Assembly: GCA_963743045.1 (NCBI GenBank)
Contig: CAVUOF010000032.1
Span: forward strand, 69,611 to 133,610
From: an uncultured Acidobacteriota bacterium
GTDB taxonomy: Bacteria; Acidobacteriota; Blastocatellia; RBC074
Direction of reading: 5' to 3'
DNA length: 64,000 nt
The notes below the pieces were generated by a model. That model had not been told where the DNA came from, ran no database searches, and saw only the letters and a list, made by a program, of their open reading frames with translations. The translations under genes and the position numbers were made by a program. Shown here piece by piece: positions 1,753-36,816 of this stretch. Numbering within the stretch: the stretch's first letter is position 1; every line of letters begins with the position of its first letter.

Positions 1753-1757
1753 AGAGT

Positions 1758-4518: not shown

Positions 4519-5055
4519 TCAGTTGACGTAGCTCCGAATGATCTTGACCAGCTGAATAATCTCGCTTGCCTCAACGACGACCGTTGCTGAGACAACGTGT
4601 CGCGACGTCTTCTCCATGCTCGTGTTGAGCCTCTCGCCCGTGGACTTGAGCTGTTTGAGCGCGTCGTCAAGGCTGGCCGGCGGAGACTCGAGCGGGGCCT
4701 CGTCATTGGTTCCACCGAACTCCGAGCGTATCGTCTTTGCCGATTTCTCGATCTCCTTCAGTTTCTTATCGGCAGTGTGTGCGAGATGCGAACCCGCCGT
4801 ATCCTGTGCCAGCGTGTCGACTGTCTCTTTGAGCTGGGCGGCACGTTCGACGAGCTTCTTATGCTCATCCTCTTCGCGCTTGATCTCCATTCGCTTCATG
4901 TTCTCGCGAAAAGAGTCGCCCTGATCGTCCGCGGGTGATGTGGCCTGCCCCGGGGCTACCGGACCGCGCACTTCCTGCGACCAGGCAGTCGTATTCCCAA
5001 GGACCGGGAAGGCCAGAACCAGCAGGAATGCCACGATCAGACAGAGCGCACGCAT
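4519..5055 (-). CDS. Hypothetical exported coiled-coil protein
   Basis: Signal-like N-terminus MRALCLIVAFLLVLAFPVLG, followed by charged helical sequence (KRMEIKREEDEHKKLVERAAQLKE). The ORF-track start at 5139 is a TTG; I prefer the ATG at 5055. Confidence 0.4.
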   Translation of the reverse strand: MRALCLIVAFLLVLAFPVLGNTTAWSQEVRGPVAPGQATSPADDQGDSFRENMKRMEIKREEDEHKKLVERAAQLKETVDTLAQDTAGSHLAHTADKKLKEIEKSAKTIRSEFGGTNDEAPLESPPASLDDALKQLKSTGERLNTSMEKTSRHVVSATVVVEASEIIQLVKIIRSYVN

Positions 5056-5135
5056 GAGAGAAACCTGCTCTCTTCTACCATAAATCGAGTGAGGGTTAAA
5101 GAATGAGCGAGGGGTTCGGATGATCAGCCAGCGAG

Positions 5136-5702
5136 TCAATATTCGCAGTTCAGCAATCGACGCCGGTTGTTGCCTTTGAGACTCAGATCGAGGCCAAGAA
5201 TTTTCCCGGCCAGCCCGCGAAGCACCTCATCCTCGAGCCTCCCGTTCGAGACGCTGTCGATCCATTTCTCATCATTCATAACTCCCGATATTCGCCCCTG
5301 AATATGGGCGATCACTTGAAGCTGCGAACGCTTTCCGTCGAGTGGAAGCAGACTCAACTCAAGCGTGTAGCGTCCCTGAATCCAGTAGCGCACATCACTC
5401 GCGGGAAGCGTCGCGAGGTGTTCGAGATCATCTTTCGCGGTGACGCCCTTGGTGAAGATCACATAGCGTGTGACAAGCTTTGCATCCTCAGGCTTGCTCG
5501 CTTCATCATCGATGGGAATCTTGCATGAGGAAAAAACTTCCTTCGCTATCTTGATCACCTGGTCGCGGGGTACCGCGATCGTGTAAGGATTGGGCAGCGG
5601 CGGTTCCTGCTTGGGACGATCAATCTGAATCTGTCCCTGGGCAGCCTGACTGAGGCAGGAGACTGCAAAACCCAGCCAGACAAGCCTAAGTATTGATCTC
5701 AT
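5136..5702 (-). CDS. Hypothetical exported protein
   Basis: Signal-like MRSILRLVWLGFAVSCLSQAAQG from the internal Met. No recognisable family. Confidence 0.4.
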   Translation of the reverse strand: MRSILRLVWLGFAVSCLSQAAQGQIQIDRPKQEPPLPNPYTIAVPRDQVIKIAKEVFSSCKIPIDDEASKPEDAKLVTRYVIFTKGVTAKDDLEHLATLPASDVRYWIQGRYTLELSLLPLDGKRSQLQVIAHIQGRISGVMNDEKWIDSVSNGRLEDEVLRGLAGKILGLDLSLKGNNRRRLLNCEY

Positions 5703-7414: not shown

Positions 7415-8020
7415 ATCGTCTCTCCATCCCGCAGGGATGCAGGAGGGTAGTCAGTGCTGGCTTCGAGGCTGTCTCAAGAATTCGAGTTGTTGTCAGGGAC
7501 TAGGCAGCTTCCATTCCCGCGCACGGGACGTGCGCGAGGATATTAGCCGGTGGTGAAACCACCGGAACGAAATCGCCAAAGGAGCGTTGCGCCCTGGAGG
7601 GCCGCCGGATCAGATTTGCGCAAGCATGTAGTTGAATCCACAATGTTTATGCCTAAATTGCATTATCTGGGCTCAGGTCCTGCGCCCCTGCCGGGGCGCA
7701 ACCGTGAGGGGGGACGCATACCCGGCGGTTTCACCGCCGGCTAATTCCTCGCGCACCTTCGGTGCGCAGGAAGAGCAGGTGCCACCATCCGCGAATTTTA
7801 GACGGCCTCCTTCGCTTGCCCTTGGCTACCGTCTCGCATCCCTGCGGGATGCCCGAAGCTGGCGCCCTGTTTGAGGAGCCTTCATTTCCAACGTCCCTCT
7901 TGTTCCGAAGCGCGACCCGTCGCCGTTCGTAGGGGCGGCTCGTGAGCCGCCCTCACTTCGGCCATCCATCAGTACAGTTCCGAGAGAGGCGTGTGGGGGC
8001 GGTCGCGAGCCGCCCCTACT
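7415..8020. repeat. Mosaic of GC-rich hairpin modules (REP/REPIN-like), including a ~250-bp inverted pair
   Basis: Hairpins CATCCC-gca-GGGATG (7425-7439), GCGCAC..GTGCGC, CCGGTGGTgaaACCACCGG, GCATCCCtgcGGGATGC (7836-7852), and GGGGCGGCtcgtGAGCCGCCC-type (7931-7951, 7995-8015). The arm at 7519-7608 is roughly the reverse complement of the arm at 7681-7770. Confidence 0.7.
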
Positions 8021-8540: not shown

Positions 8541-9590
8541 TCAGGGCATCACGATTCCAAGCTCACGGCCAAACGTAAACTGCACCCGCTTTCTCGTTCT
8601 CATCGCCTTCGAAGCCGTCTGCGATAAGGCAGTCACCAGCATCGGCATGGCGATCGTCGCGTCGCAGCGCACTGTCACCGCCCTCGCCGACCGGGCAAGC
8701 CGGCCAAAACTCTGAGCCTGATCGAAGTCCGACCCTGAATATCCGCCAAAATAGGGCCCTTCAGTGACTATCTGTACGGCATATTTGTGGCCGCGAACCT
8801 GTCCGTGAAGCAGACCGGCACTGGCTTCGCTCTGCTGGATGAAAGTCTTCGGCGTTCCCCCGCCAAAGAAGACAACCCCGGTGGAGCGGGCCTTTGCCAC
8901 TATCTGCGCGAGATCGACCACGTCCTGGATAACGTCGAACTGGAACTGATTTTTCTTCTCGATCCGGCTCAAACCTATGGATACGCCAAACGCACTGTCG
9001 GCAATCGCCGGACAGAACACTGGAACCCGTGACTTGTAAGCCGACGTCAGAATCCCGTCCTCGGTCGCAATCTCGCTGAGCTCTCTTCCCAGAAGGTGAA
9101 GAAACTCTCTCGTCGAGTAAGGATGGCTGCTGTCAAGCTGTCCGGCAAAGCCGCCGATCCATTCGTTAGCCTCGCGAAACTCTTCTTCAGATGCCAGCGT
9201 ATCGTAAATCCGATCGACCATCTGCTCCTGCAGTTGAGCATCGTCCATCTTCGGATCACCCTGGTAGTGAAAGCGTCCGAGAGTTTCGTGAAGATCGTGA
9301 AAGATGTTGGCGCCAGTGGCCACGAGGACATCGACGCAGCGATTCTTCAACAGATAGGCAATCAGCCTTCGCATGCCCGCGGGAACGAGGGCTCCGCTGA
9401 TTCCCATCATGACAATGGCGTTCTCGTGAAGCATCTGGAGCCAGATCTGGTGGGCCAGTGCAAGGTTGCGTCCCTGGAACGAAATGCCCTCCATTTTCTC
9501 GAGCAGACCGGGAACACTGCGGTCCCGGTCGATCTGGAGCGGCTGGGTGGGCTTGGTAAAGTATTTTGCGCCTTTCAGTCTTCTGATCAT
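8541..9590 (-). CDS. Deoxyhypusine synthase family protein (homospermidine-synthase-like)
   Basis: 349 aa. GISGALVPAGMRRLIAYLLKNRCVDVLVATGANIFHDLHE and FFGGGTPKTFIQQ are typical of the DHS fold. Confidence 0.8.
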   Translation of the reverse strand: MIRRLKGAKYFTKPTQPLQIDRDRSVPGLLEKMEGISFQGRNLALAHQIWLQMLHENAIVMMGISGALVPAGMRRLIAYLLKNRCVDVLVATGANIFHDLHETLGRFHYQGDPKMDDAQLQEQMVDRIYDTLASEEEFREANEWIGGFAGQLDSSHPYSTREFLHLLGRELSEIATEDGILTSAYKSRVPVFCPAIADSAFGVSIGLSRIEKKNQFQFDVIQDVVDLAQIVAKARSTGVVFFGGGTPKTFIQQSEASAGLLHGQVRGHKYAVQIVTEGPYFGGYSGSDFDQAQSFGRLARSARAVTVRCDATIAMPMLVTALSQTASKAMRTRKRVQFTFGRELGIVMP

Positions 9591-11544: not shown

Positions 11545-11781
11545 CGTTTGAGTTAGCTGACCTCCTCGCTGGTTACCGGCTCCCCGAACTCTTCAGGATC
11601 AAATAATTGACGGGCTCTCGTTCAAACACACAGCAGCCACGGGAATCAGGACTCTGCGCACTGTTTTTGCTGATCGCAGCTACGGTAGGGCGTTTTGAAG
11701 CCGGAATGTAACAGATTGGCTCGGTAGCTGTCAAAAACTATTTTTCCCCGTGTAAGCGCCCCAGACATCACAACATAACAC

Positions 11782-11812
11782 AAAAAGGGGCAGCCCTGCT
11801 GACCCCTTTTTG
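11782..11812 (-). terminator. Hairpin terminator after FG-GAP gene copy A
   Basis: AAAAAGGGGCAG-ccctg-CTG(A)CCCCTTTTT lies 26 bp downstream of the stop at 11838. A and T runs flank both sides. Confidence 0.5.
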
Positions 11813-11837
11813 ATTGGCAGTTGGCGGCGCCCACGAG

Positions 11838-13074
11838 CTACTGGAGCGAACGCCCGTTTAGGAGGCGCGGATGAAATGCGCGGCTCAGAAAGACCGAGAC
11901 CACACCCGGATCGTTCGGTCCCGAGACCTGTGAAACATTGGTCACGGCCAGGTCTGGAACGCCATCGCGATCGAAGTCCCCCGCACCTATCGTGTAGGCG
12001 CCACCCCGGGTCATGAGATTAATCCCATCCTTGAATGTTCCATTGCCCTTGCCGAGGAGGATCGTGATTCCCTTTGCCGTGCTCTGACCAATCGAGTCGG
12101 TGCTCAGGTTGGAGACTGCGATGTCGAGAATGCCGTCAAGATCGAAGTCCGCCACTGCCAACCACAAGGGGTCTCTGCCCACGGCAGGTTGTGCTGTACG
12201 AGCAAAGGCGCCGGCGCCATTTCCAAGGAATACACTGACGGTCGCGTTGACCGAGTCCGCGCTGATCAGATCAAGATTGCCGTCGTGATTGATGTCTACC
12301 GAGAGCAGGAAATGGGGCCCGGCACCGGTTGTCAGTATGGTCCCCTCTCGAAAGGTTCCGTCGCCATTTCCAAACCGGACGGCAATTGCACTGTCGTCAA
12401 GCACGGCAATCGCGAGGTCGGCTTTGCCGTCGCCGTTGAAGTCTCCGATTGCCACTGCATGGGGACGGTGGCCCGCGTCGAAGCGCGTTCCGTTGGCAGC
12501 CGAAGCGTCGAAGAACGTGCCGTCGCCGCGGCCGATGAAGATCGAGACCAAATTGCGCTCGTCTTCGGCAACAGCGAGGTCCAAGCTTACCGTCATTGTT
12601 CAGATCACCAATGGCGACGTGATGCGGTTGGAGCGAATTGACATCGTGGCCGGCGAAGAATGTGCCGTCGCCGCGCCCGAGGAGAATGGAACAGGTTCCA
12701 ACACCATAGTTGGTGACCACGAGATCGAGGTTTCCGTCGCCGTTGAGATCGCCTGCAGCAATTGAGCTCGGGTAATCGTCTGCCTGCTGCTTGCCAATCG
12801 GATAAGTGCGGGCCCTCGAGAAGATGCCGTTGCCGCCACCAAGCCGAACCACGAGCGACGGAACATATGTACTGCCGCTCGGCTGGTAAAAGTTGGTCTG
12901 CACAAGATCAGGTATCTTGTCGTGATCGAGATCGACGACAAGCAATCCATAGGGTGTATAGACCCGGTCATTGAGCTGGGTGCGCAAATAGTCGACGCCT
13001 TGTTCTGAATGTATCGCGGGATTCAGCGCGACCGCCAGACCCACGAGGGTGAGGAGTATGTACAGCTTTCGCAC
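11838..13074 (-). CDS. FG-GAP/VCBS repeat exported protein, copy A (one frameshift near 12590)
   Basis: Signal MRKLYILLTLVGLAVALNPA. Repeated DxNxDGxxD motifs (GDLNGDGNLDLVV, GDFNGDGKADLAI, DINHDGNLDLIS, DFDLDGILDIAV, DFDRDGVPDLAV). Split between ORFs 12397..13074 and 11838..12596. Confidence 0.7.
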
Positions 13075-13218
13075 GATTCATCGCTCCAGGAAGTCGCTGT
13101 TTAAATCAGCAGACCGGAAGTGGGGGATCGCCGCGAGAGGCGACCACCGGTTGATGGCCTTGCGCAGACGGGGCCAGAACATGCGGCGGCAAGAGGACCT
13201 GTTCCGGGACGAAGGCCG
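11838..13218. repeat. Segmental duplication, copy A (pairs with 30188-31569)
   Basis: Base-by-base reading shows well over 90% identity across the whole FG-GAP gene and ~145 bp upstream. Similarity stops after ...GACGAAGGCCGCCG. Confidence 0.8.
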
Positions 13219-13398
13219 CCGCGATTCTGCCACTCTTCATCCGCCTGCGCCAGCAAATTTGCACTAACGCCCGCTAAGGATTGAGAAGCTGCGCCAGCAC
13301 AATAGGATACCTCATTGATCAAGGGTCTGATCGAATCTCATAGATCCGTTTTCGTTGCGCCGGAGTATTACTCGTGTGAATAAGCAAAGGAGACGACA

Positions 13399-13676
13399 AT
13401 GAGCACGGACATCACCGGGTATCTGGCTTCCTCGGGAAGAATTGAAACAAGCGATCTCGACTGGGAACTCGCGCGCGAGGCCGGACTGACGGACGACGAA
13501 CACTTCGCTCTTACTATTTGCGGATATTGAAAGCCAGACAATCCGGTACCTGCGCACACTGCTTCAAATGAAGATCCGCGCTCGAACCCGATATTTCCGC
13601 ATTCCTGACTACCTGGAGCTACGAAGAATTCTTTCATGGGCAGGCGGTCGGATCGTGCTCGCCAAGTGAACACTGA
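13399..13676 (+). pseudogene. N-terminal fragment of a ferritin-like diiron (ExxH) protein, frameshifted and truncated
   Basis: RBS AAGGAG, then MSTDITGYLASSGRIETSDLDWELAREAGLTDDEHFALT. Shifting frames gives YFADIESQTIRYLRTLLQMK, then ALEPDISAFLTTWSYEEFFHGQA. The sequence stops at the flanking repeat. Family call is tentative. Confidence 0.35.
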
Positions 13677-13694
13677 AGATTGTCGCGCACGGCG

Positions 13695-14015
13695 TCGCGA
13701 AGCGACAACAGAAGGTAGCCAGGGGCGAGCGAAGCGAAGCCCCTGGATAACAAGTAGACAGGACCCCCGCGTCCTGAAGGGACGCGAGACGTGACGCACC
13801 TTGCCACCCTGAAACCCGCACATTCGGGTATCACATGCCTTCCACACACAGGAGCATTCATGTGCACGTTGTCTTCAGCACCAAGAACCGAACCCCTACC
13901 CTATGGAATTCAGTACCGTTCTGGCGCCCCTCCGGGGCGCGGTCTTATTGTTAAACGATCCAGGGGCTGCGCTTCGCTTGCCCCTGGCTACCTTCTTGCA
14001 TCCCTTCGGGATGCA
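13695..14015. repeat. Inverted pair of REP-like hairpin arms flanking a transposase remnant
   Basis: Left arm ...GAAGGTAGCCAGGGGCGAGCGAAGCGAAGCCCCTGG...CGCGTCCTGAAGGGACGCG. Right arm GCGCCCCTCCGGGGCGC...CCAGGGGCTGCGCTTCGCTTGCCCCTGGCTACC..GCATCCCTTCGGGATGC. The arms are reverse complements in module order. Confidence 0.7.
13835..13900 (+). mobile_element. Remnant (first ~17 codons) of an IS200/RAYT-like Y1 (HUH) transposase
   Basis: The ATG at 13835 reads MPSTHRSIHVHVVFSTKNRTP..., the N-terminus I recall for 'HVHxVFSTKxR' IS200-like/REP-associated transposases. The reading frame then runs into the right repeat arm. Confidence 0.45.
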
Positions 14016-14081
14016 TCGCTCGTTGGAAGGTCAGCCTCGCAATTATGAAAACGACACACAACGAATGGGGCTAATTTCCGC

Positions 14082-14918
14082 TGGTAGCGGAATCTGCAGG
14101 TGACCGTTGCACAAATCTCTCTCGGGCCGGCAAAATGAGTTCCATTGAAGGTCTCACTATGGTCCTTCCTCGAGCGGCTGACCTCAGAATGTGAGTCGCA
14201 TTCCGAACTGAATCTGTCTCGGGTCCGCGGCTCCTGTAGGTGTCCCGAAGGCCCGCAGAGGTATCGCCCCCGTTCCGAAGGTCGCATTCGGAAGCTGCAG
14301 GTTCGAGCGATTGAGCAGATTGCGGTCGTTTCCGGTGACGATATTGAAAAGGCAACGCAGAGCCGTAGCTGAAGATGTAGCTCAACTGAAAGCCTGAGAC
14401 GGCTCGCCGCCAGAACGGCTCGCCCGCAACCGCGGTTGGACTCGAGAGCGAACCGCTGATCACAAGCCGGTGCTGCTGATCATTATCTGCCAACCCGCGG
14501 TCGTCGCGCAGATTGAAGTTATTCTGTGGAGTCGAGAAGAACTCGCTGATGTTGGCGAATCGGGGATCCGGCCGCCCAGGTGGGCGATTCCCTTCTGAGG
14601 AGCCTCTGCCGCTGAACCGTTGTAACATTGACATTGCGTGAGAGGATGACGTGAAGACTCCTGACGTAGACGTAGCCAACGGAGAGCGACGTCGACGAGG
14701 CAATCGCGCTCGAGCTGTAGGCTCGCCCGAATCGCGTAGGAGTTTTCGATATTCGGATCAATCGTCGTAATGCTCGCCAGCAACCCTGACGGAAAGGCCG
14801 ACGCCACACTCGGAAATACGGGTGCCCCCGGCTGTCCGAACGGCATCACCGCAACCCGGTACTTCGTGCCGTCGCGTTGCAGAGCATTTGATGTAGCACG
14901 CAGGGGAATGCGATCGTA
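14082..14918 (-). pseudogene. Decayed remnants of two TonB-dependent receptor genes (paralogs of 31772..33998 and 34029..36816)
   Basis: 14082-14168 aligns to the last ~28 codons of the 31772 gene. 14184-14918 aligns to the C-terminal ~340 codons of the 34029 gene (FGQPGAPVFPSV..., SLSVGYVYVRSLHVILSRNVNV, DNDQQHRLVISGSLSSPTAVAGEPFWRRAVSGFQLSYIFSYGS, ...ADPRQIQFGMRLTF*). The second block carries two internal deletions and several frameshifts. Confidence 0.7.
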
Positions 14919-14919
14919 A

Positions 14920-15163
14920 ACCTCTCCAACTCAAGTCGGCATCGTCACCCTGCTGCCGAGTTACTTACGCCGTCACCGGCGATGGCGGGCACTGCTGCTC
15001 TTCATTGCTGGGGCGTTAATGGTGCTCAGCGCGCGCCTCTATTCCTTCACTGCTAGTAAAAAAGAATCACCATTGGAACCGCCTTGTTTTAATCGGGGCA
15101 CTGCTGATTGCAGGCGCGCACCTGATCAATCGACGCCTGTGGCATGCTTGTTCGCATTGTTAA
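14920..15163 (+). pseudogene. C-terminal fragment of a MerC-domain-like small membrane protein (frameshifted)
   Basis: Reads ...VGIVTLLPSYLRRHRRWRALLLFIAGALMVLSARLY, then in another frame LIGALLIAGAHLINRRLWHACSHC*. It begins exactly at the homology break at 14918. Family call is from memory and weak. Confidence 0.3.
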
Positions 15164-15178
15164 TGATAAGTCTACGAA

Positions 15179-17137
15179 TCAATGTGTTGGCGAATGTGGG
15201 AGTAGCCGGGCCGAATTGAGAATAAAGGCCAGCTCAGAAGTTACATGGATGAAGGCTGCCAGCAAGGGGTTGAGCAGCCCGAAAGCCGCCAGTCCCACCC
15301 CGATGCCATCCACGATCAACGTCCCGGCAAAATTGGTCATGATAATGCGGTGACACCGCCGCGCGATTCTCAGGGTCTCGACGAATTTTAAAAGGTCATT
15401 ACCGAGCAGCATAATGTTCGCGCTCTCACGAGCCACGTCGGTTCCAGAGCCCATCGCCACACCGACGTCGGCCTGCATGAGGGCCGGCGCATCATTGATC
15501 CCGTCACCGATCATTGCAACCTTCCTCCCTGCCTCACTGAGGGCCTGGATTCGCTCGAGCTTCTGCTCCGGAAGGAGATTCGCAGCCACCTCATCGATGC
15601 CAAGCTCCTGACCAACTGCCGCGGCGATTACTTCGACATCACCGGTTAAGAGAATCGTTCGGATTCCTGCCTGGCGAAGCGCAGAGACGGCTTCTTTTGC
15701 TTCAGGCCGAAGCACATCGGCGATCCGGAACCTCCAAGCAGCCGGCCGCCGCGGGCCACGAGAATCTCTGAGGATTGATCAGCCCCTTCAGAGTTCGGGT
15801 CTCGCGGATTCACGATAATCTGTCGCTCGTGGACGAGGCTTCGATTACCAACGACGATCTCCTCTCCCCCGACCGAGCAGATGATGCCTTTGCCTGGCAA
15901 GTAATCGAAGCGCTCCGGCTCCACCACCGGGAGCGCAGCCGCGGCGGCTTTCCTTAAGATCGCAGAGGCGACGGGGTGTTCCGACGGTCTTTCGGCGATT
16001 GCTGCCGCTTCTAATAAGTGCACTCTCGGTGACGCCGTCCACAGGACAGACTGCGATGACCTCAGGCGTTCCCAGTGTCAGCGTGCCGGTCTTGTCAAGC
16101 ACGACCGTATCAATCGTGCCGAGGACCTCGAGGTAGAGCCCTCCCTTGATGATCGCGCCCTCCCGCGCCGCGCGGCCGATAGCACCAAGAATTGCCAGGG
16201 GCGTGCCAGCCGCGATTCCGCAGGCGCCTGCGACAATCACGACCGAAATCGTAGATCGCACGTCGTGAGTGACGAGCAAGGTCAGCGCAGCGCATCCGAT
16301 GGCGAAGTAGACGAGATAGCCCGCGAGCCGGTCTGCGGTCTTCTGAATCGGCGCTCGCGATTTCTCCGCGCGTTCAACTGCCTCGATAATCTTGCCGAAC
16401 GCGGTCTCGCGCCCCAGCCCCTCTGCGCGCACCTCGATGCACGCCGGATTGATTGATGGTGCCGGCGTACACCCGCGCCCCGTCAACTTCTCAACCGGAA
16501 GCGACTCGCCCGTGATCGTCGCCTGGTCAACGAAGGAATGGCCGCGCACGACTTCGCCGTCCACAGGGACGCGTGCGCCGGGCTTGACGATCACTACGTC
16601 ACCCACCTGCATCTCTTCGAGACGCACGGCGTGCGCCTCACCAGCGCGGCGCACGAGCGCCTCTCGTGGCAGCAGATCGAGTAACTCCTTCATCGCGCGC
16701 CTGCCTCGTCCGCCGACCAACCCTTCCAAAACCTCCGCGATGAGGACAAAGAAAATGATGACGAGCGCCGTAAACACTTCGGCGATCGCCAATGCGGCAC
16801 AGATGGCGATGGTCATCGAGAGCTCCATGGTCATCCTGCGCGCGAGGAGTGATGAGAAGGCTTCTTTGAAGATTGGATAGCCGCCAATCAGCGCCGCAAT
16901 GACCCCTATCAGGCTGAGATGCGAGAACGGCTGCAGCCAGAGTGCGATGATTGCGAGACCAACGAACCCGATGCGGACCAGGTCCGATAATTCCACATGA
17001 TGCTCTTCCTGGGCGCCTTCCGCCTCGTCGTGACGCTCAGCCGTGTAGGCAACTTTGGGATTGCCGGTAGAATCCGATGTCGCGTCCACCAGAGTATTCG
17101 TCTTCGTTGCTCGAGCGTGTGCCTGATTCATTAGCAA
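15179..17137 (-). CDS. Heavy-metal (P1B-type) P-type ATPase without an N-terminal HMA domain; two apparent frameshifts (~16020, ~15715)
   Basis: ORFs 15845..17137, 15646..16023 and 15179..15715 join into one ATPase with ITGESLPVEK, DKTGTLT, MIGDGINDAPAL and VAMGSGTDVA. The TM segment has VAGACGIAAGTP where CopA/ZntA have CPC. The N-terminus is His/Glu-rich (ERHDEAEGAQEEHHVE). Confidence 0.8.
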
Positions 17138-18839: not shown

Positions 18840-18899
18840 AAGTTCGCATCAGTATATGATCCCTGCTTTCACGTTGCCAGATCTTTGGAGAATCAGACG

Positions 18900-19183
18900 C
18901 AGCCGTATCTCTTGCCACGTTAGCTATTTTCGCTCAGCCGCTGGTAAGCCCAAGTCAACCACTCAAGCGCTATAACCGGCAATTGGTTAGATACTAGTAG
19001 TCACCTATTGCCGATGCCCTTAGACTGCCCACGCTAATCGACACCTTAATATCGGGTTAGATCGAATCGAGAGCCGATAGGTATGAGCACCGCACTGCGT
19101 GTCCTGATTGCTGACGACGAAAGGCCCGCGCGGTCGTTTCTGGCGGCGCTGCTCCGTCGCTTCGAGGATGTTGTGCTGATTGG
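18900..19183. repeat. Duplicated segment, copy A (pairs with 29690-29974): promoter region plus first ~33 codons of the LytTR regulator
   Basis: Alignable by eye at roughly 85-90% identity, including GCTATTTTCG..CAGCCGCTG.TAAGC.CAAGTCAACCACTCAAGCGCTATAAC and ATACTAGTAGTCACCTATTGCC. Confidence 0.75.
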
Positions 19184-19865: not shown

Positions 19866-19944
19866 CATGCGACCTCAGGGAACGAACGAAAGAATGACCT
19901 ATATGCTACAGCGCGGTCTTGAGGCCGCGTGGGAGGAGGAATCA

Positions 19945-22464
19945 ATGACAACCAAAATGCGTTTCGTTGTGGCGGTAGCTTGTCTGCTCGGAGCGCTATC
20001 ACTTACCTGTCTGGGACAGTCGCTCTCCGCCGGTACTGTGACAGGCACAGTCACAGACCCGACTGGCGCGGTCGTGACGACTGCGACAGTGATCATTCAG
20101 AACGCGGTTACTGGCTTCCGACGGTCGACGACCACCGATAACACCGGTTCATTCCGTTTCGGCGATGTACCGCCGAATAACTATCAACTGAGTGTCTCGG
20201 CGAACGGGTTCAACACGGTCACCCAGAATCTTACGGTGCGCACATCGGTGCCGATCACGGTCAATGTCTCGCTTGCGATCGGGGGTGTCACCAACACTGT
20301 GGAGATCGCGAGTTCCGAGAGTTTAGTCGAGAGCGTTCCAATGGCGCATACCGATGTAGACCAATCACTGATTGCCCGCCTGCCTGTCCGGTCTCCGGGA
20401 TCCGGGTTGAGCGATGTGGTGGCCTTTGCCGCGCCTGGCGTTGCGGCCGACTCCAATGGGCTCTTTCATCCGCTTGGTGATCATGCGCAGACATCGATCT
20501 CATCGACAATCAGCCGATCACAGATCAGATCGAGCAAGGCCTTCTCCACGCAGCTGCCTGTCAATGCGATCCAGTCGCTTGAGGTGACTACCGGCGCCGT
20601 GCCTGGCTGAGTACGGCGACAAGACCAGTCTGATCATCAATGCGATCACGCATTCGGGCATCGGGCAGAAGCATCCGACCGGCAGCCTGCTGACCAAGTA
20701 CGGCACGTTCGGAACTCGCATACCGAGGGCACATTCGGCTTCGGGGATGCGAAAGTAGGCAACTTCATAGCCTTCAACTTTGAGGACCGCGGCCGGTTTC
20801 TTGACGCGCCGGAGATATCAGTGTTTCACGATCGCGGCACCTCGTCGAGCATCTTCGACCGCCTCGACTACAGCGTCGGCTCGAACGATACCTTCCATCT
20901 CAACGTGCTGCTGGCGCGCAACCGTTTTGAGATACCGAACACCTACGAGCAGGAGGCCCTCGGACAGGACCAGGGCCAGCAGGTGCGATCGGTCAACATC
21001 GCGCCCGGCTACGTTCACATCTTCAGTCCAACGACAATACTGACGGTCAATCCTTACTTTCGCATGGACCAGGTCTGGTACTACCCGAGCGCGAATCCAT
21101 TCTCGGATCAGACCAGACGGTCAGCCAGCAGCGACGGCTACAGAACTCGGCATCCGCGCCGACATCGCCTACACGAACGGGAGTTCACAACGCCAAGGCG
21201 GGAGTGCAGTTCTCGCACACATTCCTGACTGAGGCGTTTCAGTTTGGGATCACCGATCCGAATTTCAACGATCCTACGAGCCCCAACTTCATTCCCGGCC
21301 TGCTGCCATTCGACCTGACGCGTGGCGGGAGCCTGTTTCACGTTCAACGGCCACACCGATATCAAGCAGGTGGCGGTCTATGCGCAGGATTCGATCACCA
21401 GGGGCAACTTCACAGCCAATCTGGGACTGCGCTTCGATAACTACGCGGGCACTCAGCAAGGGACCATTTGTGGCAGCCGCGCCTCGGGGCTCGTACCTCA
21501 TTTAAAACGAACCGGGACTGTGTTGCGCGGCTCCTATAGCCGAACGTTCGAGACGCCATATAACGAAAACCTGATTCTATCGAAGCGGCCGGGGCGCAGG
21601 GCTGGGCGACGGCATACTTGGCGGTGCGAGCATTGAGAGTCTCAAGCCGGGCCAGCGACATCAATTCAATGCCGGCTTTCAGCAATGGGTTGGCAGGCAC
21701 GTTATGATCGACGCTGACTACTTCTGGAAGCGGACGCGCAACGCATACGACTTCAACGTCCTGCTCAATACGCCGATTGCTTTTCCGATCTCGTGGAACA
21801 AGTCGAAACTCGACGGGTTGGCACTGCGGGTCAATCTTATCCGACTATAAAGGGTTCACCGCATTCTTCTCGGCAGGGCACACGCGGGCGCGGTACTTCC
21901 CGCCGGAGAATGGCGGCCTCTTCTTTAACTCCGATATACCGGCAGGCGTCTTCCGCATCGACCACGACCAGGCGTTCCAGCAGACGAGCCAGGTTCAGTA
22001 CCAGTTTCACCAGTTCGGCAAGCTCCAGCCGTATGCGGCATTCAGCTGGCGCTACGACAGCGGAGTGGTTGCCGGGCCAGTTCCCGACTACGCGACCGCC
22101 CTCGGCTTCTCGCCTGATCTGCAGGCGCAGATTGGTCTCTTCTGCGGGAACGTCTTCGCGACACCCACGCAAGGTTTACGATTCGTGCACGATCCAAATC
22201 GTGGGGCGACTCGCGATTAAGATTCCGGCCGACGGAACAGCGAACGACGATCACAATCCTCCGAGGATCGCGCCGCGGCATCTATTTGATTTCAGCATGG
22301 GCACGGACAATCTGCTTCGGACAGATCACACGCGCGTGACCTTGCGGTTTACGGCAATAAACCTCACGAACAAGGAGGCGCTGTACAATTTCCTCTCGAC
22401 GTTCAGCGGGACGCACTTTGTTACCCCACGTACGTTCGCTGGACAGATAGGGATTGTTTTCTGA
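19945..22464 (+). CDS. TonB-dependent receptor with carboxypeptidase-regulatory-like N-domain; at least 6 frameshifts (possible pseudogene)
   Basis: MTTKMRFVVAVACLLGALSLTCLGQSLSAGTVTGTVTDPTGAVV...FRFGDVPPNNYQLSVSANGF. Receptor-like pieces continue through ORFs 20821.., 21204.., 21322.., 21777.. and 21793..22464. It ends ...THFVTPRTFAGQIGIVF*. Confidence 0.7.
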
Positions 22465-30138: not shown

Positions 30139-31426
30139 CTAAGCCTGAAAACCCTTACAGAGACGACAGGATGGAGTAGCACCACGCGCTACTGGAGCGA
30201 GCGCCCGTTGAGCAGGCGTCGGATGAAATGAGCGGCTCAGAAAGACCGAGACCACACCCGGATCATTCGGTCCCGATACCTGTGAAACATTGGTCACGGC
30301 CAGGTCTGGAACGCCATCACGATCGAAGTCCCCCGCACCTATCGTGTAGGCGCCACCCCGCGTCATGAGATTGATCCCATCCTTGAATGTTCCGTCGCCC
30401 TTGCCGAGGAGGACCGTGATTCCCTTTGCCGTGCTCTGACCAATCGAGTCGGTGCTCAGGTTGGCGACTGCGATGTCGAGATTGCCATCAAGATCGAAGT
30501 CCGCCACTGCCAGCCACAAGGGGTCTCTGCCTACGGCAGGTTGTGCGGTACGAGCAAAAGCGCCGGCGCCATTTCCAAGGAATACGCTGACGGTCGCGTT
30601 GACCGAGTCCGCGCTGATCAGATCAAGATTGCCGTCGTGATTGATGTCTACGGAGAGCAGGTAATGGGGCCCGGCACCACTTGTCAGGGTAGTTCCCTCT
30701 CGAAACGTCCCGTCGCCATTTCCTAACTTGATGGCAATTGCACTGTCGTCGAGTACGGCAATCGCGAGGTCTGCTTTGCCGTCGCCATTGAAGTCTCCGA
30801 TTGCCAGCCGCATGGGGACGGTGGCCCGCGTCGAAGCGCGTTCCGTTAGCAGCCGAAGCGTCGAAGAACGTGCCATCGCCGCGGCCGATGAAGATCGAGA
30901 CTAAATTGCGCTCGTCTTCTGCGACCGCCAGGTCCATCTTACCGTCGTTATTCAGATCACCAACGGCGACGTGATGCGGCTGGAGTGAATTGAAATCGTG
31001 TCCGGCGAAGAATGTGCCATCGCCGCGCCCGAGGAGAATGGAGCAGGTTCCAACACCATAGTTGGTGACTACGAGATCGAGGTTTCCGTCACCGTTGAAA
31101 TCGCCTGCAGCAATAGAACTTGGGTAGTCGTCTGCCTGCTGCTTGCCAATGGGGTAAGTGCGGGCCCTCGAGAAGACGCCGTTGCCGCCACCAAGCCGGA
31201 CTACGAGCGAGGGAACGTATGTACTGCCGCTCGGCTGGTAAAAGTTGGTCTGCACGAGATCAGGTATCTTGTCGTGATCGAGATCGACGACAAGCAATCC
31301 GTAGGGCGTATAGACCCGGTCATTGAGCTGAGTACGCAGATAGTCGATGCCTTGTTCTGAATGTATCGCGGGATTCAGCGCGACCGCCAGACCCACGAGG
31401 GTGAGGAGTATGTAAAGCTTTCTCAC
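30139..31426 (-). CDS. FG-GAP/VCBS repeat exported protein, copy B (frameshifts near 30850 and 30215)
   Basis: Nearly identical to copy A (the first 26 residues are identical). Split between ORFs 30623..31426 and 30139..30876. A 1-nt difference near the 3' end extends the reading frame past the stop used in copy A. Confidence 0.7.
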
Positions 31427-31569: not shown

Positions 31570-31771
31570 GTCACTATTCTCTTTCCCGCTGAGCATGGGA
31601 CCGCCTCGTGCAGGAAGTCGGCTCAAAGATTGGTTCGCTGCCGGGCCCCGAATGGTATCCGAGTAATGCGCAAGTATTTTGAGAAGGGCAAAAGCCCTTC
31701 GTCTGTGATGCAGGTGGATCGCCGCCTCGATATTCATTCCTGGCCCGGCTGTCGGATCGTGGCCACTTGCG

Positions 31772-33998
31772 CTAGTAGTGGAACCGGTAGGTGACAGCTG
31801 CATAAATCTGTCTCGGGTCGGCATAGTGAGTGCCATTGAAGGTCTCACTGTTGTCCAACAGGAACCGCCGGTTGGCTACATTCAGCATGTGAACGGCAAT
31901 TGAGAGTTTTTCGCCCATAGCCTTTCCCAACGCCAGGTCGAAGGTCGTGTGCCCCGGAAGATGTTGGGGCGCATTGTCTCCATCGACGAAGCCCGACCCA
32001 TAGTAGACGTTGGTAGCTGCAAATGCGCTCCAGGGGAGACGGATATCCCCTCCCACGTTGAGCGTGTTGCGCTGATCATGGTCGAGGAGGAAGTAGTCGC
32101 TCGGCGGAGAGAAGTCGGTCAAGCCACCAGTCACGGCTCCCTGTCCTTCCAGTTTCAACCAGGCATAGGCCGCGTGCACTTGAGCTCGCTGAAACAGCCT
32201 TGGCGAATTGACAGTCACCTCCCACCCTCTGGCCCTGCCTCGCTCAATGGTCACCGGAAAGAAGATGTTCGAGTCGCCGAGCGCATTGTGATCGAAGAGA
32301 TTCTTCGTGCCGGTATGAAAGTAGTCTCCGTCGAGCGTCCAGCCACGAACGGGGAGTGTCAATCCGACCTGATACTCTTCGTTGCGTTCGCCGTGCAGCG
32401 GCAGAAAGGCGAAGCCCTCGTCGAGCGCGAAATCGATCACCGGGCCTTGAACGGTAGACAACGGCGGAGCCTGATAATAACGGCCATAGAATCCTCTCAG
32501 CACCAGACCTGCGCGAGGCAGACGAACCGCGACGCCCGCGCGAGGACTTCCAATGGTCTCGCTCACTCCTCCGTCGAAATGGGTCAATCGCGCGCCCAGA
32601 GTGAGAGTCAGCCAGCCGGTCGGCTTCATCTGATCCTCGAGAAAGAAGGCCTCCAGGTTCCCTGACGGCTTCTCCCTTTGGAGCAGGCTTCCTCCAGTCC
32701 CGTCGTTCGCCTGGAGACCGAAAGAGGCGGTGTCGCTCTGATAGAACGCGTAAACGCCAGCTTTTGCGCTGTGACGATTTGCTCAGCCAGCTGAGCGTCA
32801 CCTGGCCTCCGGCATAGTTCGAAAGGCGTTTCTCCTGCGGGATTATCGGGTTGTCATCGGGACCGCCAAGGAATGACGCATTGTTGAAATGCAGGAATGG
32901 AGAGACAGTCAGCAGCAGGCGCGGTGTGAGAGTTCGGACCCAGGAGAGGTTGATATACCCGTCACTCTCAATCTCGACGTCTCTGATACCGGCCGCTTGT
33001 GTCTCTGGATCGTTGGGCACCTGGTAGAAGTCGCGACGTGCTGAGGCCACCAGACGCAGTTGATCGACGGGAGTCGCGTTGAATGCCAACGAAACGAATG
33101 CCCCGATGCCGTTTCCCAAATCATGGATGACATCCGGTCCCGGGGTCGCCAATCCATAGTCGCTCCGGTTGCCGTTGAGGCTCACAAAATAGGCGAACCG
33201 CTGAGTGTGACTGGCAAAACTGACCTGGTCATTGGTCTGGTTGAAGCTGCCGTAGCTCAGCCTCAGCTCACCTTCCTGATTGCGCTCAAATCCCGACCTC
33301 GGCACGACGTTGAAGACGGCATAAGTGCGGTCGCCGTAGGCTGCCGAATAACTTCCCCGCTGCACTTCGAGGTAATCAATATCTTTCGGATCCACTTGTG
33401 GCGCCACATTGCTGGCGATATTGGTGTTCGGCACCGGAACACCGTCGATCAGCCAGCTGACCTGGTGCCCGCCGCGAACATGCAGGAGATCGTGTGTGAC
33501 ATAGGCTCCCGGAACGTAGTTGGTAATCATCGCCAGGCTGTTGCTGCGATCCGCGCCGGGCGTCCGCGCAATCCTCTCTCGTCCGATAAGAGTCGTAGGC
33601 GTTGGTGAATCCGAACCAATGAGCTCGGGCGCCTCCACGACATCGACTCCTTGCGTAACCGGAGCAATATGCATTGCAAATTCAAGGATTGGGGCATTGT
33701 CCGTGAGAACCGTCACCGGCTGCTCAATCCTGGCGAACCCGCCCGCCTCAACCGTCAGAACATACTCGCCGACGGGAACCGAACGAAAAATGAACTCGCC
33801 GTGATCATCCGTCACAACGGAAAGAACCAGTTGCGAGGTGCGCGATTGGAGGGTCACTTGAGCACCCTTTATTGCCTGCTGCTGAGGATCACGCACCAGA
33901 CCACGCACGTCGCCGAGTACAGCGGCATTCAGGTTTGAAATCATCGCGAGCAGAATGACGGCTGGCAGGATGACAAATAGCAACACCTTTCGACGCAT
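31772..33998 (-). CDS. TonB-dependent receptor (carboxypeptidase-regulatory-like N-domain); at least one frameshift (~32650-32760)
   Basis: Signal MRRKVLLFVILPAVILLAMISNLNA. GLVRDPQQQAIKGAQVTLQS..GEFIFRSVPVGEYVLTVEAGGF, then plug RTPGADRSNSLAMITNYVPG..VRGGHQVSWLIDGVP. The C-terminal ORF 31772..32629 ends YAAVTYRFHY*. Confidence 0.75.
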
Positions 33999-34028: not shown

Positions 34029-36816
34029 TCAGAATGTGAGTCGCAATCCGAATTGAATCTGCCTGGGATCTGCCGCCCCTGTGGGCGTCCCGAACGCCGG
34101 CGGCGGAATTGTCCCTGTTCCAAAGGTTGCGTTCGGGAGCTGCAGGTTGGCGCGATTGAGCAGGTTGAAGCCCTCGGCCAGCACATCGAGGCCGAATCTC
34201 TCGGTGAACCTGAAATGGCGGCTGAGTCTCATATCGAAAGAAGCAAAATCAAACCCGACGCCTGTGTTTCGGCCAACTCCGACAGGCCGGTCATTGACCG
34301 CCGTATCATTGTTACGATCGTTGCCAGTTACGATGTTGAAGGGCAAGGACGAGCCATAACTGAAGATGTAGCTCAACTGGAATCCTGACACGGCTCGCCG
34401 CCAGAATGGCTCACCGGCAGCCGCCGTTGGGCTCGACAGCGAACCGCTGATTACAAGTCGATGCCGCTGATCGTTATCCGACAGGCCCCGGTCATCGCGT
34501 AGATTGGAGTTATCCTGCGGGCCGGAAAAGAAGGCGCTTCCCGTATTATCGATCGCCTTCGAGAACGTATAGGAGAGTCTTAAGCCGGCCCAGCTCTTGA
34601 ACCTGCGATTGAGTGAGACAGTCAACCCGTTGTAGTAGGCGTCGCCTGAGCCTTCGTAGCGGCTGATGTTGGCGAAGAGAGGATCGGGACGGCCAAGATT
34701 GGCGATGCCTTTCTGCGTTGCCTCCGCCGCCGAGACGGTTGGAACATTGACGTTGCGCGAAAGAATGACGTGCAGACTCCGCACGTAGACGTACCCGACC
34801 GAGAGCGACGTCGACGAGGCAATCTCGCGCTCCACCTGGAGGCTCGCCCGCAGCGCGTTGGAATTCTCTATGTCAGGATCGATGCGCGTAATGCTGGCCA
34901 GCAACCCGGTCGGAAACGCCGGCAAAACGCTCGGGAAGATGGGTGTACCGGGCTGTCCGAACGGGATCACCGCGACCAGGTATTTCGTGCCGTCACGCTG
35001 CAGAGCATTCGATGTGGCGCGCAGGGGAATGCGATCGTAATAGGTACCATAGCTCGCACGAATGACCGTCTTGTGGTCGCCCGGCGACCAGGCGATGCCG
35101 AGACGGGGAGATATATTGTTGGTGTCTGTTTTGATCGGATCCGGCAGAAACTGCAGGTCGTAACGCAGCCCCAGATTGATCGTGAAATTCTTCAGCCGCC
35201 ATTCGTCCTGAACAAAGAACCCGACGTTTGGATTCGACTGAAACTGGCCTGGTGCTCCGAACGCCTGCTGGAAAGTTACGTACTGGCCGCGAATGAAATT
35301 GGCAAGGTTGGAGAATGTATAGACGCCCTGGAGCGCCCCGGGAAACTCGATGTCGACGCGGTTGAGCAGAAAATCGAGCCCGAATTTCAACGAGTGGGCC
35401 CCTCGACGAAGTGTCATGCTATCGACCGCCTGAATCGAGTCGATATTGCGCTCAGTGGGAGACGACGTCGCTGTGCCCATATTGGCCACACCCGATATCG
35501 AGATGGCCGGGCCGATGAGATCGTTCGGCGGAGCTCCCAGACGGCTGCGCGTGTACTGGAACCGAGCCTCGTTCATCAGTCGCGGAGAGAGAGTGGCGAC
35601 CTCGCTCAGGACTATCGATTGATCGCGACTGTCGAGTGCCGTTCCTCGGCTCACAGCATTGATTCCGCCAACGTTGCGCGCATTGAGGCTCGAAATGTCG
35701 TAGTAGCTGTAACGAGCCGAAAGCAGGTTTGCCGGGTTTATCCGATGGTCCACTCGAACAAAGACGTTGGATGTGTTGTAACCGGCCGGCGCGAGTCCGG
35801 TCTCAACTCTCGATGCGGAGTATTTGACCTGGTTGAGAATGTCATTGATGGCCAGCACGCTGGCCGGCGTTATCGTCAGGACAACTGCGTTATGAAGCCG
35901 CGTCTGCTCGAAGTTGGCAAAGATGAACGTCCGATCCCTGACTATCGGGCCTCCCCCCGTGGCTCCGTATTGCGCTTGCGTCAACGGGTCCTTCGTCCTG
36001 GCCAGAGGATTTCGCGCGTCAAAACGCTGGTTGCGCAGGAAGCCGTACAACCGGCCATGCCAGTCATTGGTTCCTGACTGCGTGACTGACATTGATGATT
36101 CCCGCAGATGCTCGCCCGTACTCGGCGATACCACCGGAAGTGATGACCTGAAACTCACGAATCACGTCCTGGCTGAAGAAGGTCGCCGGAAGATCGGCAG
36201 CATCGTCGTTGGAGGAGAGCCCATCCAGCAGAAATCCGTTGTTGATATTCCTCTGGCCGGTAACCGAGATCGCCGTGCCTGGGACTGCGGAAGTCTCGGC
36301 AAAGCGCTGGTTACTTACAGGATTTGCTCTCGTCACTCCCGGCGTCAGCGCCGCAAGGTCGAGATAATTGCGCCCGTTCAGCGGAAGCGAATCGACCTCC
36401 TTCGGGAGTATGGTCTCGGATACCTGGGTACGCGCGGTCTCTATGATCGGCGCATCCGAATGAACCTCGATTTGTTCACTGACGACGACACCCAGCTTAA
36501 TAGGAACGTCGAGCGTCTGGCCGACAGTGAGAGACAATGCGAGAACAAAGGTGGCAAATCCATCTCGTTCAGCTTTGAGTTGATAGCGTCCGACAGGCAG
36601 ATATGTAAAGCGATATCTGCCCTGGGCATCACTCGTCGTTTGCCATGTTTCGTTCTGATCAACCCTCGTCACGGTGACCGTAGCGCGGGCCACCATGGCG
36701 CCCTGCATGTCTTCGATAGTGCCGCTGAGCGTAGCCGAGGTAACGCTCTGTTGTGCTCTGGCCGTCGCAGCAGTCAAAAGGAGAAGGACTGCGAGCATGG
36801 CCAACCTGCGTCTCAT
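34029..36816 (-). CDS. TonB-dependent receptor (carboxypeptidase-regulatory-like N-domain); one frameshift (~36070-36150)
   Basis: N-terminal ORF 36064..36816 (MRRRLAMLAVLLLLTAATARAQ, GTIEDMQGAMVARATVTVT..GRYRFTYLPVGRYQLKAERDGF, LPLNGRNYLDLAAL). A 709-aa barrel ORF follows, ending ADPRQIQFGLRLTF*. Confidence 0.8.

Follow-up and report, generated by a model that had tools for sequence, protein, structure and literature searches.

A likely case of duplication, differential loss and recombination in a receptor and FG-GAP gene block of a soil acidobacterium

Introduction

Gene conversion, or concerted evolution, between bacterial paralogues gives rise to mosaic alleles of surface proteins. A recent survey has addressed such conversion between paralogues in M. 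tuberculosis (PMC13061034). Segmental duplication in bacteria, followed by the erosion of pseudogenes under deletional bias, is likewise described (Kuo & Ochman 2009, PMC2817411; Kuo & Ochman 2010, PMC2916853; Danneels et al. 2018, PMC6054270).

Here we consider two loci, A and B, in a window of 64,000 nucleotides (the whole stretch of DNA analysed) from the Blastocatellia genome of a soil acidobacterium, a metagenome assembly that is 78% complete; both loci lie deep in a 212-kb contig, C32. As in deletional-bias erosion, a redundant copy has been lost piecemeal at locus A, mostly through deletions of 0.1 to >2 kb with scant or no microhomology at their junctions, and gene fragments remain between intact neighbours. 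Unlike in those cases, the ancestral site would here be the eroded one, with the receptors surviving at the other, the FG-GAP gene appears to be retained in both copies under purifying selection, and the host is free-living, with no ongoing genome reduction. The likeness to gene conversion between paralogues lies in the sharp, alternating A-type and B-type tracts in the receptor gene of relatives, and in paralogues that are more alike within a lineage than positional orthologues are between lineages; nothing, however, marks the remnant at locus A as a programmed donor cassette. A decayed element at locus A is also reminiscent of REP sequences with their RAYT (an IS200-like Y1 transposase), in that a Y1_Tnp gene, of which a full copy stands on contig C22, lies between inverted REP arms, and in that REP pairs are dispersed at intergenic sites between convergent genes; in contrast, the locus A copy holds only ~21 transposase codons. 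Finally, the indel errors of long-read or low-coverage metagenome assemblies resemble the 1-2-base breaks seen here in essential genes, which are patchy and absent from relatives, but such errors explain single-base shifts only, and account neither for the duplication nor for the deletions, which measure from 126 bp to >2 kb. The case is probably one of ordinary duplication, differential loss and paralogue recombination, as part of genome turnover, and its significance is mainly for the annotation of this genome.

Results

In a self-BLAST of the window, five colinear matches (Table 1), at E values from 1e-18 down to 0, connect locus A (11831-14919) to locus B (30182-35040). Two colinear multi-gene stretches thus share one replicon at a similarity far above chance, and the block is present exactly twice in the assembled genome, both times on C32. 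This map and its junctions, which are direct observations, bear out much of a sequence-only reading of the same DNA, in which locus A mirrored locus B (we find 80-93% identity), with an FG-GAP gene and upstream region more than 90% identical, a receptor 2 reduced to its last ~28 codons with a mutated stop, and a receptor 1 reduced to its C-terminal ~240 codons with two in-frame deletions and frameshifts; our counts are 27 codons for the former and, for the latter, 242 codons, losses of 126 and 147 bp and four indels. That reading also separated the pieces by 0.85 kb holding a gene fragment and REP arms, and had the homology break at 14918 abut a further gene fragment. The spacer measures 854 bp (13222-14075), from the FG-GAP upstream region to the receptor 2 tail, and the break, at 14919/14920, adjoins a plus-strand gene for a MerC-like membrane protein of some 143 aa, of which the last 76 residues are left.

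Table 1. Features of loci A and B and the self-BLAST matches between them (positions in the window)
Feature	Position	Strand	Counterpart in locus B	Details
FG-GAP copy A	11838..13074	-		411 aa with one extra base (~12582-12585) ignored; signal peptide; repeated FG-GAP_3
FG-GAP upstream region, copy A	13075..13221	-	31427-31570	~88% identical
Ferritin-like (desaturase-like) 5' remnant, locus A	13222..13646	+		First ~84 codons, with the region upstream; ATG 13400; truncated; two frameshifts
Decayed REP/RAYT unit	13690..14015	.		Inverted REP arms around first ~21 codons of IS200-like Y1 transposase; ATG ~13835
Receptor 2 tail, locus A	14076..14165	-		Last 27 codons; stop TAG -> CAG; receptor 2 deletion junction 14164/14165
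Receptor 1 remnant (R1'), locus A	14184..14919	-		242 codons aligned to B; stop TGA 14184-14186 retained
MerC-like small membrane protein fragment	14920..15161	+		C-terminal ~76 residues; cut at 14919/14920; frameshift in A6 run
FG-GAP copy B	30139..31426	-		428 aa with one extra base at 30807 ignored
Ferritin-like 3' remnant, locus B	31571..31761	+		Last ~63 codons; 86.5% identical to L025 2314-2504
Receptor 2, locus B	31772..33998	-		TonB-dependent receptor: CarboxypepD_reg, Plug, barrel; one frameshift between 32244 and 32629
Receptor 1, locus B	34029..36816	-		CarboxypepD_reg and OMP_b-brl_4; one extra base ~36088
Match 1, FG-GAP and upstream	11831-13221		30182-31570	93.0% over 1393 bp
Match 2, receptor 2 tail	14076-14165		31767-31856	82.2%
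Match 3, receptor 1	14164-14322		34007-34167	82.6%
Match 4, receptor 1	14320-14547		34312-34538	80.3%
Match 5, receptor 1	14545-14919		34662-35040	81.3%

Bar one frameshift per gene, locus B encodes TonB-dependent receptors with a CarboxypepD_reg domain, a plug, a full barrel and a C-terminal aromatic residue, and the positional orthologue of its receptor 1 on contig L053 is intact (928 aa). No such receptor is left at locus A, which holds ~242 barrel codons of receptor 1 with two hairpins missing and 27 codons of receptor 2. R1' lacks two segments, one of 126 bp beyond 14548 and one of 147 bp beyond 14323; both lengths are multiples of three, and both segments are present in relatives and in 120/120 database homologues. 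Four small indels (-2, -1, -1 and +1) lie at about 14706, 14616, 14581 and 14351; at four in 0.73 kb they exceed the mean error density of this assembly (~0.4-0.6 per kb), and rpoB has equally dense clusters. The MerC-like fragment beyond the break matches the C-terminal halves of open frames of 134-155 aa in relatives, among them a 143-aa example with a CAIHC motif.

The FG-GAP gene fared differently. Copy A, earlier called intact-looking, is split as assembled into two ORFs (12397-13074 and 11838-12596) by its one extra base; dropping one base restores the 411-aa frame, and the gene is intact at 411 aa on L025, a sister contig of 8.3 kb from a different metagenome sample (JGI 3300054979; 2% diverged, orthologous dS 0.05-0.10). 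Repeated β-propeller units of the FG-GAP/VCBS type stand above the Pfam cut-off in all four ORF pieces of the two copies (PF13517 at 62-111 bits, PF01839 at 50-62 bits). Between the copies dS is 0.22, pS 0.19 and dN/dS 0.09, values from which both genes are probably functional and kept under purifying selection. The shared upstream region of copy A (13075-13221) ends at the endpoint of an 837-bp deletion in locus B, and L025 is continuous over this boundary; a sigma-70 and terminator scan of 11700-15300 was uninformative on this region. As an opposite-strand gene once lay between them, transcription of the FG-GAP gene would be independent of the receptors; the gene should not be seen as just the end of a receptor operon, and it survives without receptors.

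That opposite-strand gene is found in pieces at both loci. Rather than unrelated inserted material, as the 854 bp had been read, locus A has here the 5' third of an ancestral ferritin-like gene, followed by a decayed REP/RAYT relic. Read in three frames, the gene remnant has 67-69% amino acid identity to the N-terminus of relatives' genes of 280-287 aa, a full-length one of which gives a weak PF03405 match. The gene is intact in L025 (287 aa), compared with which this genome lacks 573 bp (junction 13628-13646) and carries small indels of +1 at 13577 and -2 at 13517. At locus B, the stretch earlier taken for an intergenic spacer (31571-31761) is the 3' remnant of the same gene, with small indels and with differences distributed 12:8:13 over the codon positions (dN/dS 0.53). 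A sensitive search of B 31571-31766 against A 13222-14075 returned zero similarity, because the deletions in the two loci are complementary. As for the relic, its REP arms match >100 places in the genome and its structure is identical in L025, while a complete RAYT of 148 aa (PF01797, E 2e-21) lies at ~C22:166927-167375, its two flanking arms corresponding to 13691-13898 and 13921-14015.

The states of the relatives, again directly observed, allow the events to be polarised, as the sequence-only reading had proposed. A contig of a distant relative, P0002, carries the complete block in the order R1 (928 aa), R2 (740), FG-GAP (440), speA (635), deoxyhypusine synthase (DHS), LysM, with both receptors intact, and on L029 (~80% nucleotide identity), which was the one further close contig recovered in a metagenome scan with the FG-GAP protein, FG-GAP adjoins speA. 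L025 reproduces the junctions 13221/13222 and 14164/14165, the REP relic, the receptor 2 deletion and its CAG codon, yet its R1' is an open frame of at least 593 codons (it ends at the contig edge) with neither the two internal deletions nor the truncation, and its speA is intact (634 aa). Complete genes thus stood ancestrally at site A, as seen in the P0002 block and in the open R1' and whole ferritin-like gene of L025. The GTDB relatives (family-level, ~68% nucleotide identity) have a receptor 1 orthologue, and the R1-R2-FG-GAP order was not found among them; their synteny is no help in polarising, as unrelated genes lie between speA and a P-type ATPase gene. We had also entertained that locus A was a partial duplicate which never held complete receptors, a candidate ruled out by L025 and P0002.

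Discussion

We consider it likely that a single ancestral block gave rise to both loci through duplication, differential loss and recombination, with locus A, which neighbours speA and the deoxyhypusine synthase gene, as the ancestral site, because the distant relative has intact R1-R2-FG-GAP-speA-DHS there, and with locus B as the copy that holds both receptors. The direction of the duplication is read from gene order in two relatives. The proposal of duplication followed by deletion-driven loss is supported in that these appear to be true paralogous copies of which A has had its receptors deleted, in an order polarised by relatives. The ancestral block would have comprised receptor 1, receptor 2, the ferritin-like gene on the opposite strand, and FG-GAP with its own upstream region. 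At locus A, we infer, a single deletion would first have removed receptor 2, and a REP/RAYT element would have landed behind its tail, both before the split from the L025 population. In this lineage only, a second deletion may then have fused the central part of receptor 1 to that of a divergent MerC-like gene, after which the deletions of 126 and 147 bp would have taken β-hairpins out of R1', and one of 573 bp would have shortened the ferritin-like gene by two thirds; locus B would separately have lost 837 bp of its own ferritin-like copy. The deletion junctions at locus A have 0-5 bp of microhomology.

Could a simpler history suffice, in which the 3' part of the block was duplicated once and recently, and the receptors at A have been neutral pseudogenes throughout, with no recombination? 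Parts of the locus do look this way: the receptor 2 tail is neutral in appearance (differences 4:5:5 by codon position, 82% identity, i.e. 18% diverged), as is the ferritin-like remnant of B with its dN/dS, and the divergence of both is near the pS of FG-GAP. R1', on the other hand, is not what neutral decay after a single duplication would leave. Its differences from B fall 21:12:101 over the codon positions, with a dN/dS of 0.07 and no stops in B's register, and its pS of 0.54 is ~3x that of FG-GAP; L025 has its frame open, and in a distant relative the receptors at site A are complete. To this are added the sharp mosaic tracts of relatives, and paralogues whose mutual distance is smaller than that between B and its L053 orthologue, so that we regard the simpler history as quite unlikely. 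The substitution pattern of R1' fits instead the recent inactivation of a diverged functional allele.

Together, a third-position-biased R1' and the mosaic tracts of relatives point to ectopic recombination (gene conversion) between loci A and B. Indeed, the informative sites of L025 run, in order, as B-type, 26 A-type, at least 48 B-type and again A-type, with sharp boundaries at L025 861/864, 960/972 and 1674/1680, though L025 could be a chimeric contig, and the mosaicism of its R1' might conceivably stem from the assembly itself. In a four-way comparison, L053 shows further mosaic patches, and the odd one out is sometimes this genome's A copy and sometimes its B copy. Within the lineage, paralogues are closer (dS 0.25 for L025 R1' versus B, 0.22 for FG-GAP A versus B) than are B and its positional L053 orthologue (0.36). 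Gene conversion between the loci would explain why divergence is uneven and why the receptor alleles are mosaic. A reading of the R1' and FG-GAP divergence (dS 0.95 versus 0.22) as two duplication ages was dropped, given the patchwork of outliers in the four-way comparison. An alternative for the two internal deletions is that the B-type tract of L025 (972-1674), which spans both deletion sites, marks a repair by conversion in L025 instead.

Perhaps locus A is no biological entity at all, and an assembly chimera or collapse between paralogues or strains has brought together truncated receptor pieces that occur in no single cell? The source is a metagenome assembly, 78% complete and with many consensus errors, and the junctions 14919/14920, 14548, 14323 and 13628-13646 were seen in this one assembly and in no other public contig found. 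For the junctions common to both, however, the chimera that the sequence-only reading allowed for is contradicted by the independent contig L025, which, from another sample, repeats the receptor 2 junction, the REP/RAYT relic and the A/B boundary at 13221. There was little for an assembler to collapse on, as A and B have no exact run longer than 66 bp in common within the FG-GAP segment, and identity falls to ~81% in the receptor pieces. Moreover, R1' is not a copy of B, from which it differs at 19% of sites, and both flanks of each junction lie deep within the 212-kb contig. A chimera is, in our judgement, improbable, above all for the junctions that L025 repeats.

Equally improbable is that the frameshifts in FG-GAP A and B, receptor 1, receptor 2 and speA are real, and both loci dead. 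Frameshifts do amount to ~0.6 per kb of conserved coding sequence in the window, and several lie outside homopolymers. Yet broken essential genes are directly seen in this assembly: where FG-GAP A, FG-GAP B and receptors 1 and 2 of locus B have one frameshift each and speA two, the single-copy rpoB has at least three, secA one and a parC-like gene at least four, whilst rpoC, gyrA, ileS and dnaE are clean. The broken genes, furthermore, have dN/dS values of 0.05-0.09 and no stops once single bases are removed, and every checkable shift is missing from the nearest relatives (those at 12582, 11309, 10563 and 36088, in FG-GAP A, speA and receptor 1 of B, are absent from L025, L026 and L053). Because rpoB, secA and speA are broken too, we take the single-base shifts in FG-GAP A and B, the B receptors and speA to be, most likely, consensus errors of the assembly rather than decay.

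Least probable of all is that the A remnants and B receptors form a donor/acceptor pair for recurrent gene conversion, also with alleles of other strains, by which a TonB-dependent receptor at the cell surface would have its barrel and loop segments shuffled, the mosaic alleles of L025, L053 and this genome's B copy would be the products, and soil Acidobacteriota would have a cassette-like diversification of a receptor exposed to phages or toxins.

For duplication, differential loss and recombination, the preferred reading, the consequences are ones of annotation. The stretches 14076-14919, 13400-13646, 31571-31761 and 14920-15161 are relics, not to be annotated as genes, and FG-GAP A and B, receptors 1 and 2 of B and speA are probably best treated as intact despite their frameshifts. 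Third-position bias and a sister contig, as used here, can separate true erosion from assembly noise in a metagenome-assembled genome. Exact-protein look-ups of the junction-spanning ORF 14071-14703, the L025 FG-GAP protein, the B leader, the BNR propeller and the LytTR regulator returned no match, and Rfam gave no RNA family in the window. Beside locus B, self-BLAST also picked up a second duplicated piece, in which 29685-29973 (+) copies 18894-19182 at 88.6% over 290 bp; it comprises intergenic sequence and the opening ~33 codons of a LytTR response regulator gene, with the DD of the receiver domain aligned to DY.

Two copies of one gene block

Self-comparison of the window aligned locus A (11831-14919) with locus B (30182-35040, its receptors reaching 36816) in five colinear pieces, and a search of the whole assembly (4.78 Mb in 33 contigs, the window being C32:69611-133610) recovered only these two copies of the block. 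The sequence-only reading had described this matching, and its coordinates, correctly in all but one respect. The FG-GAP β-propeller gene (identified by Pfam) and 145 bp upstream are indeed more than 90% identical between loci, yet the copy in A, held to look intact, is split in the given sequence. Receptor 2 (R2) is cut in A to a short tail, as had been proposed, of 27 codons with its stop changed from TAG to CAG; and receptor 1 (R1) persists as the C-terminal remnant that had been recognised, with two in-frame deletions and with frameshifts, here counted as four small indels.

Features of loci A and B and of the sequence between their homologous pieces
Feature	Locus A	Locus B	Description
Piece 1	11831-13221	30182-31570	93.0% identical over 1393 bp
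Piece 2	14076-14165	31767-31856	82.2% identical
Piece 3	14164-14322	34007-34167	82.6% identical
Piece 4	14320-14547	34312-34538	80.3% identical
Piece 5	14545-14919	34662-35040	81.3% identical
R2		31772-33998	TonB-dependent receptor; CarboxypepD_reg, Plug and barrel domains (Pfam)
R1		34029-36816	TonB-dependent receptor; CarboxypepD_reg, Plug and barrel domains (Pfam)
FG-GAP ORF pieces	12397-13074 and 11838-12596	30623-31426 and 30139-30876	Frame split
Component 1	ATG at 13400		Upstream region, ribosome-binding site and first ~84 codons of ferritin-like gene; two frameshifts
Component 2	13690-14015		REP/RAYT relic
Component 3			~60 bp of unique sequence

Locus A as the ancestral site

A contig from a sister population (L025; JGI, 8296 bp), found through an exact match to the deoxyhypusine synthase protein of the window (8541-9590), is 97.9% identical to the present genome over 13646-8266, with orthologous dS of 0.05-0.10. 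At its left end a receptor ORF stays open over 593 codons as far as the contig end; it is followed by the same junction of R1 stop and R2 tail as in locus A (TAG to CAG included) and by the REP/RAYT relic as in A. Beyond these lie three intact genes, namely the ferritin-like one (287 aa, opposite strand), FG-GAP (411 aa) and speA (634 aa), and lastly the gene for deoxyhypusine synthase. A distant relative, retrieved with the translation of the R1 remnant, has the order R1 (928 aa), R2 (740 aa), FG-GAP (440 aa), speA, deoxyhypusine synthase, LysM protein, and in another relative (L029, ~80% identical) FG-GAP immediately precedes speA. These gene orders indicate that locus A is the ancestral site of the block, and between them the three contigs polarise the events, as had been expected of a comparison with related genomes. 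Locus B is present in a further relative (L053, ~90% identical), where R1 (928 aa, intact) and R2 are accompanied by the leader and by a longer ferritin-like piece (residues 113-286).

Deletions at both loci

The 854 bp between pieces 1 and 2 of locus A (13222-14075; components 1-3) had been taken for inserted, unrelated material. Comparison with L025 shows instead that it reflects two complementary deletions in an ancestral ferritin-like gene, plus a REP element. Relative to L025, the present genome lacks 573 bp of this gene (junction 13628-13646), which encodes 280-287 aa in relatives and is weakly desaturase-like (PF03405). Its last 63 codons in L025 (2314-2504) are 86.5% identical to B 31571-31761, which had looked like B's own spacer, with differences of 12:8:13 by codon position and a dN/dS of 0.53. 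Locus B has thus lost 837 bp of the gene (L025 2505-3341), and the A/B homology break at 13221/31570 is where that deletion ends.

The homology break near 14918 does adjoin a gene fragment, as the earlier reading had it: right of 14919 lies a truncated MerC-like membrane protein gene (~143 aa in full, + strand), of which the C-terminal half is left. At the 14919/14920 junction two genes of divergent orientation therefore seem to be joined within their coding regions, which would match the scar expected of one deletion that removed the 5' part of each together with the DNA separating them. Compared with L025, the present genome is without everything upstream of R1 codon ~690 and without two internal R1 segments of 126 and 147 bp.

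Probable recombination between the loci

At A/B-informative sites, L025 runs from B-type through 26 consecutive A-type sites (864-960) to at least 48 B-type sites (972-1674), and is then A-type to the R2 junction. In a four-way comparison with L053, our locus B is the outlier at ~34990-34860 and 34140-34070, and our locus A at ~34550-34370. Paralogues within the lineage of L025 and the present genome are also closer (dS 0.25 for the 3' part of R1 in L025 against B, 0.22 for FG-GAP A against B) than B is to its positional orthologue in L053 (dS 0.36). Taken together, these tracts, patches and distances indicate repeated recombination between A and B, probably also with alleles of other strains, and hence a mosaic receptor gene whose copies evolve in concert; the L025 mosaic lies on a single short contig, which could be chimeric.

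Such exchange offers another explanation of the two internal R1 segments, namely that L025 was repaired by conversion, and its B-type tract does span both sites. However, both segments are present in all 120 best database homologues, in the relatives and in L053, and each holds two predicted barrel strands, such that loss in the present genome is the simpler reading.

In the R1 patches 34860-34990 and 34070-34140, our locus B differs by 25-28% from A, L025 and L053, which agree mutually at 88-97%; it appears to have imported diverged sequence there.

Signs of selection before decay

FG-GAP A and B differ with a dS of 0.22, a dN of 0.02 and a dN/dS of 0.09 (14% at third positions); purifying selection has thus acted on both copies since their separation. 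The gene has kept its own 145-bp upstream region at both loci and is conserved at A without the receptors, which makes it a unit of its own rather than the end of the receptor operon. The R2 tails differ at 4:5:5 sites by codon position. Read in the register of B, the R1 remnant shows differences of 21:12:101, zero stop codons, a dS of 0.95 and a dN/dS of 0.07. This divergence would have arisen while both copies encoded working proteins, and not through decay, which makes the inactivation recent by comparison; nor is a dS of 0.95 the mark of a clean older duplication.

Frameshifts and assembly quality

With one base taken out of each copy (A ~12582-12585; B 30807), the FG-GAP frames are restored to 411 and 428 codons. 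In locus B both receptors contain one frameshift apiece, and the window has likewise split genes for a third receptor (24555-27394), a P-type ATPase and a sodium:solute symporter, besides speA, which is in three pieces. In our reading the single-base shifts are consensus errors that occur in patches of the assembly, since rpoB (C22:143000-143480; three or more frame switches inside 0.5 kb), secA (C28:23644-23690; one) and a parC-like gene (C19:30863-33239; at least four) are also broken, and since every shift that could be checked (FG-GAP A 12582, speA 11309 and 10563, the latter in two contigs, and R1 B 36088) was missing from independent contigs of close relatives. With rpoC, gyrA, ileS and dnaE clean, consensus quality is very uneven, and pseudogene calls in this assembly should all be verified in relatives or reads. 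The completeness score is merely 78%, although the contigs are long.

The four indels of the R1 remnant (-2, -1, -1, +1; sum -3) and the two of the ferritin-like fragment are ~10 times denser than the background in conserved genes, which is some 0.4-0.6 frameshifts per kb. They may represent real decay or errors, as clusters this dense are also present in rpoB.

Around the FG-GAP A frameshift, a ~90-bp patch (12555-12643) accounts for 16 of the differences seen between A, B and L025, part specific to the present genome, part to L025, and some sites differing in all three; it is either a local cluster of consensus errors or a small recombined patch. The receptor gene after the LytTR regulator (19867-22464, + strand) is broken into four or more ORF pieces (19867-20610, 20821-21228, 21322-21636, 21793-22464), beyond the one frameshift per gene of the other receptors, and could be either a true pseudogene or a patch dense in errors. 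Receptors of L053 (ENA ERZ25039557 contig_62254, 1633-5359 and 12874-14033) are also split into several ORFs; this is probably another error-prone long-read assembly, whose gene calls need the same caution.

Proposed order of events

We propose that the block, originally at the speA site, gave rise by duplication to a copy at a second site, and that the two copies then exchanged sequence. Locus A would have lost R2 by a single deletion at a 3-bp microhomology (GGA) and acquired the REP/RAYT element between convergent gene ends, both presumably before the split from L025; B would then have lost 837 bp of the ferritin-like gene. In the present lineage, A would finally have lost the 5' part of R1, the leader and the 5' part of the MerC-like gene, next two R1 hairpins, and after these two thirds of the ferritin-like gene; the junctions that only this genome shows come from one assembly. 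Loss from a redundant copy fits bacterial deletional bias (PMC2817411, PMC2916853, PMC6054270). The case is one of ordinary processes: segmental duplication, redundant-copy loss, gene conversion between paralogues, REP/RAYT insertion and assembly indel errors. Less expected are the position of the eroded copy at the ancestral site and the mosaic receptor alleles, neither being new in kind.

Other elements

In the relic at 13690-14015, inverted REP arms enclose the start (~21 codons) of an IS200-like Y1 transposase gene. REP arms occur more than 100 times, dispersed, in this Blastocatellia genome (in the window also at 7810-7858 and 60469-60697), which encodes at least one full RAYT: 148 aa, PF01797, ORF ~166927-167375 on C22, between inverted arms (unit C22:166783-167765). 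By the source names on homologues, the host belongs to Blastocatellia and probably lies near Pyrinomonadaceae.

A second duplicated piece (18894-19182 and 29685-29973, 88.6% identical) comprises the opening ~33 codons of the LytTR response regulator together with the intergenic region, flanked by divergent genes, ahead of it; the copy beside B is truncated and has DY in place of the regulator's DD, which suggests further patchwork rearrangement around receptor operons.

Upstream of speA, a ~45-bp element (11699-11744, minus strand) is 87-91% identical in two family-level relatives (G008 and G010), whose DNA on either side otherwise shares about 70-75% identity. It coincides with the region's best sigma-70-like site (TTGACA-18-TACATT with TG, 11734-11705), and is probably a conserved speA promoter or leader.
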